This document shows, one piece after another, positions 18,797-54,155 of a DNA stretch of 54,155 bases. How positions within the stretch are numbered: the stretch's first letter is position 1; the number at the start of each line of letters is the position of its first letter. The DNA comes from Acidobacteriota bacterium (GTDB lineage Bacteria; Acidobacteriota; Holophagae; Holophagales; Holophagaceae): positions 1 to 54,155 of the forward strand of contig JAFDVN010000071.1 in NCBI GenBank assembly GCA_018269025.1. Reading direction: 5' to 3'. Both the position numbers and the translations under genes were made by a program. The notes under the pieces were generated by a model. The model worked only from the letters and a program-made list of their open reading frames with translations. It was not told the origin of the DNA and ran no database searches.

Positions 18797-21622
18797 ATGC
18801 TAACGATGAGATCTTCGCTTTGGGTGGTACCGGCCCTTTGCATCGGTGTGCTGGGCTGTTCGGACAAGGCAGGAGCTTCGGAGGACTCGGCCCCCGCGAT
18901 CACGACCCAGCCGACGAGTGTGACGGTGACGCCGAACAGTGCAGCCTCCTTCTCCGTCACAGCGACCGGAGCAGCCCCTCTTACCTACCAATGGCGCAAG
19001 AACGCGGGGGCCATCGCCGGAGCGACTTCCAGCACCTACGCCATCACCTCGGCCCAGGCCGGAGATGCGGGGACTTACGATGTGGTGGTTTCCAACCCGA
19101 AAGGCAGCGCGAGGAGCAACGGCGCGACGCTGACGGTGAGCGCGGCGTTGTCCGCGCCGGTGATCACGACGCAACCCAGCGGGAAGAGTGTCACGGCGGG
19201 GAGCTCCGCGACCTTTACGGTAGCGGCGAGCGGAAACCCAGCCCCGACCTACCAGTGGCAGCGGAACAATGGCGGCGGATGGAACCCGGTCAGCGGGGCG
19301 ACGAGCGCGTCCTACTCCCTTTCCGGGGCGCAGGTCTCCGACAACGGAGCCCAGTTCCGGTGTGTGGCGACCAATAGCCAGGGCAGCGCGACGAGCAACG
19401 GTGCGACGCTGACGGTGAGCGCGGCGTTGTCGGCCCCGGTGATCACGACGCAACCCAGCGGGAAGAGTGTCACGGCGGGGAGCTCCGCGACCTTTACGGT
19501 GGCGGCGAGCGGAAACCCAGCCCCGACCTACCAGTGGCAGCGGAACAATGGCGGCGGATGGAACCCGGTGAGCGGGGCGACGAGCGGGTCCTACACGCTG
19601 TCCGGAGCCCAAGTGTCCGACAACGGAGCCCAGTTCCGGTGTGTGGCCACGAATAGCCAAGGCAACGCGACGAGCAATGGCGCGACGCTGACGGTCAGCG
19701 CGGCGGGCGCGTTGGCGCCGCCCGTGTTCACAGCCCAACCTGAGTCGCGATTGGCGGCGACGGGATCCTCCCCAACCTATGCGGTCACCGTGACCGGAAG
19801 CCCCACGCCGGCCCTCCAGTGGCAGCGCAGTTCGGATGGCACCACTTGGTCAGATATTGGCGGCGCGACGAGCACGACCCTCACCCTCGCGAATGTGACC
19901 GCCTCCAATTCGAATACCAAGGTGCGGTGCCTGGCGAGCAACAACCAGGGGACGGACATGAGTGATCCAGCCGTGCTCGTAACGCAGACGCCAGGAGGGA
20001 CGACCTACTATGTGTCCCCCTCTGGCAATGACAGCAACGATGGCCTCACCCTTGGGACGGCCTGGGCGACCATCTCCCATGCGGCGGATTCAAGCAGTCC
20101 CGTGGGTCCAGGCGACACGGTGTATGTAGCGGCGGGCACCTACAACGAGACGGTGGAGCTTGAAAAGGCAGGAACGCCCGGCAACCCCATCGTGTTCCAG
20201 GGCTACAAGACCACGCCGGGCGACGCACCCTTGAAGCTGGTGGATCGCGCAAATGCGTATACCGCCTTCAATGGGTTCGATATGCCTCTCATCAACGGGG
20301 GTGACCGTACGAGTGGCATCGGTCTGGATAGCCCCCATGGGAAGAATCTGGTGATTCGCAATTTCCAAATTCGGAATGTGGCCTATGGCGTGAATTTGGG
20401 GGACAGCACCCAGAACGCCGGGAGCAACTGGCTCGACAATGTGGGCGTCATGACCGTGGGTGATCCGTCGGATGATTATCAAGGCGAAGGCATCCTCATG
20501 GGGAGCATGGGAACCCGGTTCACCAACAGCAACATGGTGACGGATTGTCTGGTGGTGAACGCTTGCGCTGAAGGTATTGATGTGAACGGCACGGGGAATG
20601 TCCTGGTGGGTTGCAAGGTTTACTGCAACGACAACACGGACAACGCTCCAACGGATTACTACATCATGATCACGGGGGATTCGAACGCCGCGTACGCCTG
20701 TTACATCGAACGAGCGCCCGGCCTTTCCCACGCGGGCCATGGGCTCGGGGCCAAGACGAACGCGGAGCAAGTCGTGGACCAAGGCCTGAATCTCCCGGCC
20801 ATTTCAGCGAGATACAATCAATTCATCCATTGCACCGCGCGGAACATGGGCGAGTCCTTCTATGTGCGGCACCGCACGGCCCAGTACAACCTGTTCTATC
20901 GGTGTACGGCCATTGGGACCTATTCCGGTGCATCCCAGGCGGCTGAAGGAGAAGGGAATGGAATCGAAACGCGGGATGGCGCCAGCGACAATGTGTTCGA
21001 TGGGCTGATCGTCAAGAATTGTGATGCTGGCATCGAATTTCGAGACACGGTGGAAGATGGCGACACCATGAGTAATCCCCCGGGACATCCTGGGAACAAC
21101 AACCTCTACAAGAACTGCCTCATCCTGAATTGTCGCCTCGCGGTTGATTTTGACGATTACAGCGTGGCGTCCGACGCGGGGGACAACACCATCGCGGATT
21201 GCACCTTCTACAAGAACCGCTACTTGTTCGACTGCGGGCGGGAATGCAACAGCATGAAGTATGTTGGAAATATCTTTGAAGGAACCCTGCAGGACGGAGT
21301 CGGAGGGGCCTTCTTCTCGCCGAGTCACCCGACTTTCGACGGTGAGGTTATTCCCAACGGGGTGAATAGCTACTTCAAGAATTGTGATTTTCACAACATC
21401 GAAGGGGGCATGCCTTCTGGCTTTGTATCAGCTGCAAGCGGGTCTATCGCCTCAGACCCAATGTTTGTGGATCCGGCGAATCTGAACTTTCGTTTAACTC
21501 CGGGAAGCCCGTGCGTGGACAGCGGCCTTTCGGTGACTGGCGTTTCGACGGATCGAGACGGGATCGGGCGTCCCCAGGGCGGCACACCGGACATGGGTGC
21601 TTATGAGGCCCACACGCCCTGA
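18797..21622 (+). CDS. large surface lipoprotein: four Ig-like repeats + right-handed parallel beta-helix domain
   Basis: Start at MLTMRSSLWVVPALCIGVLGC (lipobox). About 93-aa repeats with TYQWQRN...GATS.SY.LSGAQVSDNGAQFRCVATNSQG.ATSNGATLTV. The C-terminal part has repetitive N/G/D-rich beta-helix-like turns and the ending GTPDMGAYE. Confidence 0.8.
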   Translation: MLTMRSSLWVVPALCIGVLGCSDKAGASEDSAPAITTQPTSVTVTPNSAASFSVTATGAAPLTYQWRKNAGAIAGATSSTYAITSAQAGDAGTYDVVVSNPKGSARSNGATLTVSAALSAPVITTQPSGKSVTAGSSATFTVAASGNPAPTYQWQRNNGGGWNPVSGATSASYSLSGAQVSDNGAQFRCVATNSQGSATSNGATLTVSAALSAPVITTQPSGKSVTAGSSATFTVAASGNPAPTYQWQRNNGGGWNPVSGATSGSYTLSGAQVSDNGAQFRCVATNSQGNATSNGATLTVSAAGALAPPVFTAQPESRLAATGSSPTYAVTVTGSPTPALQWQRSSDGTTWSDIGGATSTTLTLANVTASNSNTKVRCLASNNQGTDMSDPAVLVTQTPGGTTYYVSPSGNDSNDGLTLGTAWATISHAADSSSPVGPGDTVYVAAGTYNETVELEKAGTPGNPIVFQGYKTTPGDAPLKLVDRANAYTAFNGFDMPLINGGDRTSGIGLDSPHGKNLVIRNFQIRNVAYGVNLGDSTQNAGSNWLDNVGVMTVGDPSDDYQGEGILMGSMGTRFTNSNMVTDCLVVNACAEGIDVNGTGNVLVGCKVYCNDNTDNAPTDYYIMITGDSNAAYACYIERAPGLSHAGHGLGAKTNAEQVVDQGLNLPAISARYNQFIHCTARNMGESFYVRHRTAQYNLFYRCTAIGTYSGASQAAEGEGNGIETRDGASDNVFDGLIVKNCDAGIEFRDTVEDGDTMSNPPGHPGNNNLYKNCLILNCRLAVDFDDYSVASDAGDNTIADCTFYKNRYLFDCGRECNSMKYVGNIFEGTLQDGVGGAFFSPSHPTFDGEVIPNGVNSYFKNCDFHNIEGGMPSGFVSAASGSIASDPMFVDPANLNFRLTPGSPCVDSGLSVTGVSTDRDGIGRPQGGTPDMGAYEAHTP
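19132..19689 (+). repeat. tandem 279-bp duplication inside the lipoprotein gene (two near-identical Ig-like modules)
   Basis: GACGGTGAGCGCGGCGTTGTC... restarts exactly 279 bp later (19132 and 19411). Long identical runs; differences cluster in one about 40-bp patch. Confidence 0.9.
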
Positions 21623-39056: not shown

Positions 39057-39266
39057 ATGAGCGTCCCCTCCCATGTCGCGATTATTTTCTCGGTATCGGC
39101 TTTGCCGATACGCGAGACCTCCCCTGCCAGCGGTGCATCGGCCGCTAGGGGGAGTACCTTGTGAGCATTCCGACCCATGTGGCCATCATCTTCTCGGTAT
39201 CGGCTCCGCCGATACGCGAGACCTCGCGCTAGGTTGGGCCTTGTCCGATCCAAGGGTGTCTTCCCG
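39057..39266 (+). repeat. two tandem about 105-bp units, each beginning with a copy of the uppS start (mini-ORFs) followed by a hairpin
   Basis: Unit A 39057-39160 starts ATGAGCGTCCCCTCCCATGTCGCGATTATT. Unit B 39161-39266 starts GTGAGCATTCCGACCCATGTGGCCATCATC. The real uppS at 39267 starts ATGAGCATTCCGACCCATGTCGCCGTCATT. Hairpins TCTCGGTATCGGC-NNN-GCCGATACGCGAGA at 39088-39117 and 39192-39221. Confidence 0.9.
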
Positions 39267-39953
39267 ATGAGCATTCCGACCCATGTCGCCGTCATTTTGG
39301 ACGGCAACGGCCGCTGGGCTGCCCAGCGGGGGCAGGCGCGCATTAAAGGGCACAAGGCCGGGGTCCGGGCGGTGGAGGCCATCCTGGACGAGGCCTCGGA
39401 CCTGGGCATCCAGCATTTGAGCCTCTATGCCTTCAGCACCGAGAATTGGAAGCGGCCCGCCTTCGAGGTGACGGCGCTCATGGCGCTGCTCCGCATGTAC
39501 TTGCGGATGTTCGTGCCCAAGCTTCTCGCCAAGGGCACCCGCTTCCATCACCTGGGCAGCGTGGAGGGTCTTCCCGCCGGGGTGGTGTCGGATCTCCACT
39601 GGCTGGAGGCGAAGACGGCCCATGGGACGGGCATGACCTTTCACCTGGCCGTGAATTACGGCTCCCGCCTGGAAATCGCCCAAGCGGCCGCCCGCTGCGT
39701 GGCGGACGGATTGAGGCCGGATCAGGTGGATGAGGCCGCCCTCCAGGCCCGGCTCTGGACGGCGGGCGTGCCGGATGTGGATCTGCTCATCCGCACCAGC
39801 GGCGAGCACCGCATCTCCAACTTCCTGCTCTGGCAGGCGGCCTATGCCGAGTTGCACCTGACGGACATCCTTTGGCCCGATTTCGGGCCCGCCCAGCTCC
39901 GCGAGGCCCTCGCCGACTTCGGGGCCCGGGAGCGGCGTTTTGGCGGGTTGTAG
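39267..39953 (+). CDS. uppS: undecaprenyl diphosphate synthase
   Basis: MSIPTHVAVILDGNGRWA, FSTENWKRP, and RTSGEHRISNFLLWQAAYAEL motifs. Confidence 0.95.
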   Translation: MSIPTHVAVILDGNGRWAAQRGQARIKGHKAGVRAVEAILDEASDLGIQHLSLYAFSTENWKRPAFEVTALMALLRMYLRMFVPKLLAKGTRFHHLGSVEGLPAGVVSDLHWLEAKTAHGTGMTFHLAVNYGSRLEIAQAAARCVADGLRPDQVDEAALQARLWTAGVPDVDLLIRTSGEHRISNFLLWQAAYAELHLTDILWPDFGPAQLREALADFGARERRFGGL

Positions 39954-52806: not shown

Positions 52807-53511
52807 TCATGCTTCGAGCAGCTCGCGGACGAGACCCGGCACCACTTCCGTCGCGGGACCGACGCGATGTTCCCGGAAGGCGTTCGCCATGGAGCTCCGT
52901 TCCAGATTCACCTCGATGGTTCGCGCGGAGCGCGGCGTGGCACCGACGAGCCCCGCGGCCGGATAGACGACGCCGCTGGTGCCAATGGCGACGAAGAGTC
53001 CACACCGGCTTACCGCGTCGAAGATGGTCGGGAGGCCAAGGGGTTCCTCGCCGAACCAGACGATGTGCGGGCGCAGCGATCGTGCCCCGCAAGCAGGGCA
53101 GGGTGGCCGGGGTTCGAGATCCTCCGCCCAGGCCATCACCGTCCGGCAAGCCTCGCAGCGGGCCTTGCGAAGTTCGCCGTGCATGGAGAGGACCTTTCGG
53201 GACCCCGCCCGCTCGTGAAGATCGTCCACATTCTGGGTGACGAGCAGCACCTCCCCGGGCCAATCCTGTTCCAGGCGGGCGAGGGCAAGGTGCGCCGCGT
53301 TGGGTTCCACGGTCCTCAGTTGGCGGCGCCGGGCGTCGTAGAAGCGCTGCACGAGATCGGGGTTGCGCGCGAAGGCCTCCGGGGTCGCCACCTCCTCCAC
53401 GCGATGGCCTTCCCACAGTCCCCCCGCGTCGCGAAAGGTGCGAAGCCCACTCTCGGCGGAAATCCCTGCGCCGGTGAGGACGACGATGGAAGCATCCGGG
53501 GCGATCTGCAT
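52807..53511 (-). CDS. cobB: NAD-dependent protein deacylase (Sir2/CobB family)
   Basis: TGAGISAESGLRTFRD, QNVDDLHERAG, zinc-ribbon cysteines C..C...C..C, GTSGVVYPAA. Confidence 0.9.
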   Translation of the reverse strand: MQIAPDASIVVLTGAGISAESGLRTFRDAGGLWEGHRVEEVATPEAFARNPDLVQRFYDARRRQLRTVEPNAAHLALARLEQDWPGEVLLVTQNVDDLHERAGSRKVLSMHGELRKARCEACRTVMAWAEDLEPRPPCPACGARSLRPHIVWFGEEPLGLPTIFDAVSRCGLFVAIGTSGVVYPAAGLVGATPRSARTIEVNLERSSMANAFREHRVGPATEVVPGLVRELLEA

Positions 53512-53527
53512 GGCCTATGATCCTCCC

Positions 53528-53668
53528 ATGGACGCTGCTTCCTTCGACCTCGTCGCCACCCATCATGTCGCGACCAGGACGGGTCTCACTTGGCGCACTG
53601 CGTCAAGTGAGGGGAACCCGTCGGGAGCGAGTCCGTCGCCAGTGGGCCTAGACTGGTCCCATGCCTGA
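53528..53668 (+). other. 46-codon upstream ORF whose N-terminus duplicates the thioesterase start; its stop overlaps the real ATG (ATGCCTGA)
   Basis: MDAASFDLVATHHVATR... versus the real MPEATFDLVATHHVLTL.... A 28-nt identical run CCTTCGACCTCGTCGCCACCCATCATGT occurs at 53541-53568 and 53674-53701. Confidence 0.7.
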
Positions 53669-54065
53669 AGCCACCTTCGACCTCGTCGCCACCCATCATG
53701 TTCTGACCCTCCACTTGGGCGTGGCGGGCACACTCTTTGGGGGAACGCTGCTCGCGTGGGTGGACGAAGCCGCCGCGCTCTACGCCACCCGCGCCGCCGA
53801 CAACCGCTTCGTCACCTTCGAGTTGGAACGGGTGCGCTTCCTCCTGCCCTGCTTCATGGGCGATGTGGTGGATGTGTGCGCGCGACCCATCCAGGCCACC
53901 ACTTCAGGACTCGAGCTGGAAGTGAAAGCCGCGCGTCTCCGGGCGGATGGCAGCGAAGAAGTGGTGCTCAGCACCCGCGCCGTGATGGTGGCGGTGGATG
54001 GGGATGGAAAGAAGACGCCGATCAAGTTCAGGCCGGGATGGGCGGCGCGGTTCGGGAAGGCGTGA
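53661..54065 (+). CDS. hotdog-fold acyl-CoA thioesterase (YciA/4HBT-like)
   Basis: GTLFGGTLLAWVDEAA motif, about 134 aa, typical of the family. Confidence 0.8.
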   Translation: MPEATFDLVATHHVLTLHLGVAGTLFGGTLLAWVDEAAALYATRAADNRFVTFELERVRFLLPCFMGDVVDVCARPIQATTSGLELEVKAARLRADGSEEVVLSTRAVMVAVDGDGKKTPIKFRPGWAARFGKA

Positions 54066-54155
54066 CGACGACGGGTGCGCCCATCTGGATTCGAACCCCT
54101 TGCCGTCATCGGTTCGCGCTTTGGACCGCTCCGACAGCGCCTGTGCGCTGTCTCC

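Follow-up and report, generated by a model that had tools for sequence, protein, structure and literature searches.

Leaderless bacterial genes can be recognized by a signature, TANNNT, located about 12 bp before the start codon (PMC3160421). Other genes are coupled to a short upstream ORF (uORF) or leader cistron, the natural counterparts of bicistronic designs (e.g., PMC13285730, PMC8092293). Template switching gives rise to quasipalindrome mutations (PMC8794818, PMC7202029) and is able to yield hairpin pairing and covariation without selection (PMC8794818). Two further systems that invite comparison are tandem or segmental duplication with concerted evolution and the att-site duplications made by integrases. 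We analyzed a locus that touches on all of these, in which the start of an acyl-CoA thioesterase gene is duplicated, within a 54,155-nucleotide contig of an uncultured Holophagaceae bacterium (Acidobacteriota), hereafter the window. The literature on uORFs that mimic an N terminus, and on uppS leaders, yielded nothing directly comparable. The reading that we favor, with a probability of about 0.6, is that a leaderless start module was duplicated locally at the level of the clade, an event that split a pair of overlapping divergent genes, left a relic start that gene conversion has kept similar to the working one, and enclosed a constrained hairpin.

Two ATG codons, at 53528 and 53661, lie 133 nt apart at and 5′ of the thioesterase start. 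The exact 28-nt repeat that follows them (CCTTCGACCTCGTCGCCACCCATCATGT) is embedded in a 64-nt repeat of 77% identity and period 133 (53512–53575 versus 53645–53708), which takes in 16 nt 5′ of each ATG. The first-pass annotation, which was made from the sequence alone, had reported the two ATGs, the 28-nt identity, an open frame of 46 codons, and a stop codon lying over the real start; all of these are present, with slightly corrected coordinates, and the genuine duplication of a gene start that it proposed is confirmed and is wider than it saw. No local direct repeat passed the score threshold in any block-shuffled window. An assembly artefact is excluded, because the region is identical in ten contigs of independent samples, and no deletion joint between the two repeats was found among the DNA contigs examined. 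All 44 thioesterase homologues begin M-x4-FDLVATHHVLT, as do 27 of 27 aligned thioesterases, and so the exact repeat spans a conserved motif and residues 2–5 are variable. Named homologues assign the source organism to the Holophagaceae. The genes for HU and tRNA-His lie further upstream of the cobB/thioesterase pair. The features of the locus are collected in the table.

Table. Positions of features at the thioesterase/cobB locus, numbered from the first nucleotide of the window.
Feature	Position	Strand	Basis and remarks
cobB/SIR2-family NAD-dependent deacylase, divergent from thioesterase	52807-53511	-	Pfam SIR2, E=3e-45; same position in relatives
Ancestral cobB-thioesterase spacer, 16 nt	53512-53527	.	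Plus strand TATGAT 53516-53521, 6 nt before relic ATG; minus strand cobB Shine-Dalgarno GGGAGGA
Relic start copy (A), ATG plus 15 codons (MDAASFDLVATHHVAT)	53528-53575	+	Position equals working start in outgroups; half of 64-nt repeat
uORF, 46 codons plus stop	53528-53668	+	Stop TGA 53666-53668 in ATGCCTGA, overlapping real start region
Exact 28-nt repeat CCTTCGACCTCGTCGCCACCCATCATGT, copy 1	53541-53568	+	Direct comparison
Long hairpin/palindrome, 21 pairs	53578-53622	+	Inner arms 53585-53597/53599-53611; outer stem GACGGG/CCCGTC; conserved
Possible decayed third start copy, AGCGAGTCC...CGTCGCCA	53626-53641	+	Cf. ATG AGC GAR TCC ... CTC GTC GCC A; suggestive
Spacer copy (A') before working start	53645-53660	+	-10-like TAGACT 53649-53654, 6 nt before ATG; no Shine-Dalgarno
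Working acyl-CoA thioesterase (hotdog fold, 4HBT), 134 aa	53661-54065	+	Pfam 4HBT, E=2e-11
Exact 28-nt repeat CCTTCGACCTCGTCGCCACCCATCATGT, copy 2	53674-53701	+	Codons 5-14 of working gene

Comparison with relatives identifies the original layout. L096, L097, L098, and L100 (74–76% protein identity), L132–134 (81%), and L141 all have HU, a terminator, cobB on the minus strand, and the thioesterase on the plus strand, in that order; the thioesterase and cobB start codons are just 16–17 nt apart, and there is no duplicate start. In the window, 16 nt separate the upstream ATG from the cobB ATG, and the upstream ATG follows the GGCC(C)TATGAT motif that precedes the working starts of these outgroups; this match in position and motif indicates that it is the orthologue, or relic, of the original thioesterase start. 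A derived layout, consisting of the relic start, a hairpin insert, and a new start, is found in five lineages (the window, L012, L139, L140, and L130/L131), in which the two ATGs are separated by 133, 134, 138, 134, and 170 nt, respectively. Both identity matrices, for the thioesterase and for SIR2, group these lineages as one clade. The duplication is thus common to five related lineages, and is not the private, recent slippage event that had been named as the outcome that would count against the original observation.

Three other relatives (L129, 96%; L011, 90%; L013, 78%) are without cobB, relic, and insert and keep the promoter-proximal 20-odd nucleotides of the new start. In the cobB-less relatives L129, L011, and L013/L014, the thioesterase gene directly follows the HU terminator. 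Because the SIR2-less relatives (L129, L011, and L013) are scattered through the tree, several deletions, or recombination between lineages, would be required, a point that counts against the favored reading. The comparison indicates that cobB has been lost, or swapped by recombination, several times at this locus, which appears, evidently, to be prone to deletion or recombination.

The sequences before the thioesterase starts point to leaderless transcripts. Among 19 Holophagaceae thioesterase starts compared, relics included, TAnnnT occupies positions −12 to −7 in 16 (seen as TATGAT, TATCAT, TAGACT, TAAACT, or TAGTCT) and CATTCT is found in 3; none of the 19 is preceded by a Shine-Dalgarno sequence. 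The working ATG follows TAGACT, TAAACT, or TAGTCT in every clade-I relative and in L013, and the relic ATG, with TAnnnT or CATTCT at −12 to −7, is kept in all five derived lineages. We infer from these signals that the relic and working starts are both leaderless and that the duplicated unit was a complete leaderless start module. The placement of TAnnnT at exactly −12 to −7 before both starts and the lack of a Shine-Dalgarno sequence are as in the leaderless genes described previously; the difference is that two such modules here stand in tandem, 133 nt apart.

Read on the minus strand, the 16-nt spacer gives GGGAGGA-N9-ATG, which is a good Shine-Dalgarno sequence for cobB, and for this reason the cobB transcript is expected to begin inside the former thioesterase coding sequence, now relic and insert. 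A candidate cobB promoter on the minus strand (GTGAGA-16-CATGAT) was dropped, its −10 element being destroyed in L139 and L140. A scan of 53300–53800 for consensus promoters and terminators returned nothing. Rfam models gave no credible match at E ≤ 10 in 53400–53800, and among matches to the whole window and to both leaders, only tRNA-His reached its gathering score. The metatranscriptome contigs that matched the locus covered the HU gene only.

The two start copies appear to have exchanged sequence within individual genomes. The relic and working copies of the window match at 28 of 28 positions and have the derived codons TTC, GAC, and ACC in common, and the L012 relic has the ancestral TTT, GAT, and ACG, the same as L013. 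The working copy of L140 is identical to the relic of L012 (27/27) and differs at four positions from the working copy of L012, its sister. In L130, relic and working copy agree at 26 of 27 positions in codons 6–14 and at 10 of 12 in the variable codons 2–5. The simplest explanation of the perfect 28-mer is gene conversion between copies, and conversion from a constrained working copy would also explain why most differences between relic copies are synonymous.

In several respects, the locus behaves like a tandem or segmental duplication that undergoes concerted evolution: the gene start is spanned by a head-to-tail repeat, of which one copy occupies the ancestral position; stretches of perfect identity lie amid diverged flanks; and derived states are common to both copies within a genome. 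It departs from that pattern in the DNA between the copies, which is a conserved hairpin and not recognizable duplicated coding sequence. A plain tandem duplication would be expected to leave similarity to the thioesterase coding sequence in the insert, and none was significant (p = 0.73); comparison of the insert with cobB and with downstream and flanking DNA gave no significant similarity either. The upstream 16 nt may lie outside the original duplication, because the spacers of copies A and A′ are just 6–7/16 identical in L012 and L140.

The first-pass annotation had also described a hairpin at about 53585–53611 with an 11-nt loop. The hairpin is real; its inner arms form a palindrome core, CTCACTTGGCGCA-C-TGCGTCAAGTGAG, within a larger structure (see table). 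The predicted minimum free energy of the hairpin with a few flanking pairs is −33 kcal/mol. Four sequences retain every one of the 21 stem pairs, and three pairs vary, one by an A-U to G-C double change and two between G-C and G-U, changes that would fit a stem in plus-strand RNA; a covariation test on the same stem (123 of 500 shuffles) was underpowered. The insert core is better conserved than the coding sequence (96.7% identity to L012 versus 84%, and 89% to L130 versus 81%). The distance from the hairpin to the relic ATG is steady at 48–49 nt and the distance to the working ATG differs by 36 nt in L130, and so the hairpin is tied to the relic/cobB side of the locus.

How the hairpin arose is partly suggested by two close relatives. 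L139 differs from the near-identical L140 by a 4-nt insertion, ACCC, which is the exact complement of the bulge and produces a perfect 21+21 palindrome; to judge from these sequences, the insertion bears the hallmark of a quasipalindrome-correcting template switch. The left arm has a weak resemblance to thioesterase codons 17–21 (p = 0.017–0.02). Both features recall the template-switch mutations described above, and the locus differs from them in that the origin of the whole hairpin by template switching would have to be deduced from a resemblance at p of about 0.02. Between the hairpin and the A′ spacer, a suggestive match to the gene start may represent a decayed third copy. When it was compared with the start of the same genome, the L130 version matched at 12 of 13 positions (p = 0.005), and in the other lineages, p was 0.05–0.15 with the matching blocks collinear.

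The favored history, local duplication of the start module, can be laid out as follows. Comparison shows an ancestral state in which only 16–17 nt separated the start codons of the thioesterase and of its divergent neighbor, cobB/SIR2; the thioesterase mRNA would have been leaderless, its ATG preceded at 6 nt by TAnnnT and not by a Shine-Dalgarno sequence. Comparison places the next step at the root of a single Holophagaceae subclade, where the start module (a −10-like box, the ATG, and about 16 codons) was copied locally. The upstream copy would have remained beside cobB and the downstream copy, 133 nt away in the window, would have become the working start, with the 45-nt hairpin and probably the decayed third copy between them. 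Repeated gene conversion would then have held codons 6–14 identical or nearly so. As a consequence, the overlapping divergent control regions would have been separated, and relic and hairpin would form a new upstream region of cobB. The relic may still be usable as a distal leaderless start, the product of which would be a junk peptide; the hairpin would be a constrained cis element, possibly one that acts on transcripts initiated at the relic start, possibly an operator; and the overlap between uORF stop and working start would be an accident of the window lineage.

An alternative is that the ORF that mimics the N terminus and the hairpin together form a selected leader that controls the thioesterase by coupling, attenuation, or ribosome-dependent unfolding, as at uppS. 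Selection of this kind would account for the intact relic ATG, −10-like box, and first 16 codons in all five lineages, for the synonymous nature of five of the six changes in codons 6–16, and for a conserved hairpin at a fixed distance from the relic ATG. The uppS analogues discussed below and the enrichment of start duplications in the lineage lend it further weight. The synonymous bias, however, is accounted for by gene conversion from the working copy, and other properties of the uORF do not look selected. A 1-nt indel inside the insert shifts its frame between lineages, and its length and the position of its stop relative to the real ATG are 46 codons/+5, 16/−86, 48/−26, 59/+43, and 28/−54 in the five lineages, which indicates that the overlap in ATGCCTGA is private to the window lineage. 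The relic of L139 and L140 has Gln in place of a His that is invariant in all real proteins. Most relatives lack the element and express the thioesterase without it. The working ATG is preceded at 6 nt by a TAGACT box of its own, an arrangement also seen in relatives that have no uORF, and so would not need coupling. Selected translational coupling through the uORF, which the first-pass annotation had put forward, thus finds no support at the thioesterase, and we consider a selected leader here unlikely.

The resemblance to coupled leader cistrons lies in the short upstream ORF and, in the window, in the overlap of its stop with the main start. The thioesterase locus differs in that relatives do not conserve the overlap, that the main start is equipped with a leaderless-type signal, and that the uORF is leaderless and not led by a Shine-Dalgarno sequence. 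Translational bypass of the T4 gene 60 type, or an intron-like insert, was considered and rejected: L012 is the sole lineage with a stop beside the take-off site, and an insert of this size is much too small.

The leader of uppS matches that family much better. In the window, it comprises two tandem units, 39057–39160 and 39161–39266, ahead of the real start at 39267, and each unit consists of a start with about 11 UppS codons followed by a hairpin. One or two units of this type are present in L015, L135/136, and two Geothrix genomes (L137 and L138), and none was found in Holophaga L016. All of the units sit downstream of a conserved extended −10 element (TGCTAGnAT), which places them in a predicted 5′-UTR. 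The hairpin covaries (GTATCGGC/GCCGATAC versus GTATGCCC/GGGCATAC), with pairing at 94% and a covariation score that was reached in 0 of 500 shuffles, and the start copies follow the UppS N terminus of each genome. Five of seven units have a length of 3n+2, which puts the uORF stop over the next start (ATGA, GTGA, or TAGTG), and because this overlap is mostly conserved, the idea of coupling has merit at uppS. The uppS insert showed one weak match to the uppS coding sequence, in L138 (p = 0.003, uncorrected). By comparison of the sequences, the uppS leader is older and wider in distribution than the thioesterase case and is led by Shine-Dalgarno sequences; it is plausibly a translational-coupling leader and is a candidate for a new cis-regulatory leader.

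The first-pass annotation had assigned the thioesterase and uppS duplications to the same class of event. They do agree in architecture (start copy, hairpin, and real start, possibly in three copies), but not in sequence or in conserved coupling, and when the inserts were compared for common motifs, as it had proposed, they had no sequence in common. At uppS, gene callers lengthen the protein by 30 residues (258 versus 228 aa), placing the ATG in the upstream pseudo-start unit (window 39177–39953, L138 1501–2277), an annotation artefact caused by the start duplication.

We estimated the frequency of start duplications with a peptide-level scan for start codons whose next 12 residues recur, with at least 8 of 12 identical, where a long ORF begins within 400 nt. 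The window contained exactly two such loci, uppS and the thioesterase. In 80 loci (1.27 Mb) among the matches listed from a UppS search of genome contigs, the sole match was L015, itself a Holophagaceae uppS locus. The non-Holophagaceae loci among those listed matches, 78 in number (about 1.23 Mb), served as the control set and contained none. The enrichment, 2 in 54 kb versus 0 in about 1.23 Mb, is real and rests on two loci. Of the genome-wide mechanism that had been suggested from two cases in 54 kb, the enrichment over other bacteria is therefore upheld and an element that targets 5′ ends is not. A 55-nt exact repeat in L016 (16690–16899) was discarded as a scaffolding artefact and not a biological duplication, since it flanks a run of N. 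A broader proposal is that Holophagaceae repeatedly build 5′ leaders from a start-module copy and a hairpin as a functional, lineage-specific control device that is used at many genes, for coupling at uppS and for insulation or attenuation at thioesterase/cobB; we regard this as distinctly unlikely.

Recombination between lineages could in principle have produced the same layout by replacing the 5′ end of the gene. A cobB-less donor segment (HU, terminator, spacer, TAGACT, and thioesterase) would have entered a cobB-containing chromosome through one homologous crossover in the thioesterase and one illegitimate crossover at codon 16, so that the start of the recipient became the relic and the spacer of the donor became the insert. 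The 23 nt before the working ATG do align with cobB-less L129, L013, and L011, both arrangements exist among close relatives (90–96% protein identity), the beginning of the insert (TCGCGACCAGGACGG) matches the L013 sequence after the HU stop at 13 of 15 positions, and the insert and the L013 spacer are alike in length (93 versus 97 nt). The insert hairpin, however, is unrelated to the HU terminator, which is what every cobB-less relative has at that position; the insert core has no similarity to the spacers of L129, L011, or L013; and the identity matrices for SIR2 and the thioesterase agree with each other and give no hint of a foreign segment. Taken together, this makes replacement of the 5′ end very unlikely.

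The notion of an element that targets or duplicates gene 5′ ends, whether a small palindromic MITE- or REP-like element or an integrase att scar that duplicated its target or brought in a replacement 5′ end, draws on the direct repeats that flank a palindrome-containing insert, the integrase-type events suggested by a tRNA-Arg 3′-end duplicate just past the thioesterase, and a second gene in the window with a similar layout, but is highly improbable because the insert is single-copy in all data searched and unrelated to that of uppS. Neither the window nor 1.5 Mb of fetched loci yielded a second copy; in three metagenome contig sets in which the organism is present, the insert matched only the orthologous locus and an L131-type relative, and a scan of viral contigs with the hairpin pattern gave no match. 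Known bacterial transposons generate target-site duplications far shorter than 48–64 nt; the repeat here, 28 nt exact and 48–64 nt overall, would compare with 2–15 bp, and no integrase or other gene lies between the repeats. The identical core on both sides of an insert and the restoration of an intact gene end are reminiscent of integrase att-site duplication. They are set apart from it by an insert of about 70–100 nt that is non-coding and lacks an integrase, by a target that is the 5′ end of a protein gene, and by a relic that stands at the ancestral position beside a conserved neighbor gene.

Read as a local duplication of the start module, the locus is a case of back-to-back genes with overlapping control regions that a small duplication would have pulled apart. 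The relic start, its appearance kept fresh by gene conversion, is a pitfall both for gene callers and for those who read function into uORFs. The thioesterase case is a variant of known processes, and what makes it interesting is mainly that the hairpins are conserved and that start duplications appear to be enriched in the family; the thioesterase hairpin and the older, covarying uppS leader are candidates for new cis-regulatory elements in a poorly studied phylum.

Two repeats elsewhere in the window were also observed. Immediately after the thioesterase stop, 54069–54097 is a 27/29 copy, on the minus strand, of the 3′ end of tRNA-Arg(TCT), the full gene for which lies about 150 nt further on, past the end of the window (L001 3561–3637); L013 has a 27-nt exact copy of the tRNA-Arg 3′ end. 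The copy resembles the att-type scar that an integrase-driven event would leave. At 19103–19827, a coding region contains two to three tandem 279-nt repeats with identities of 94% and about 71–91%, which are probably repeated extracellular (Ig-like) domains.
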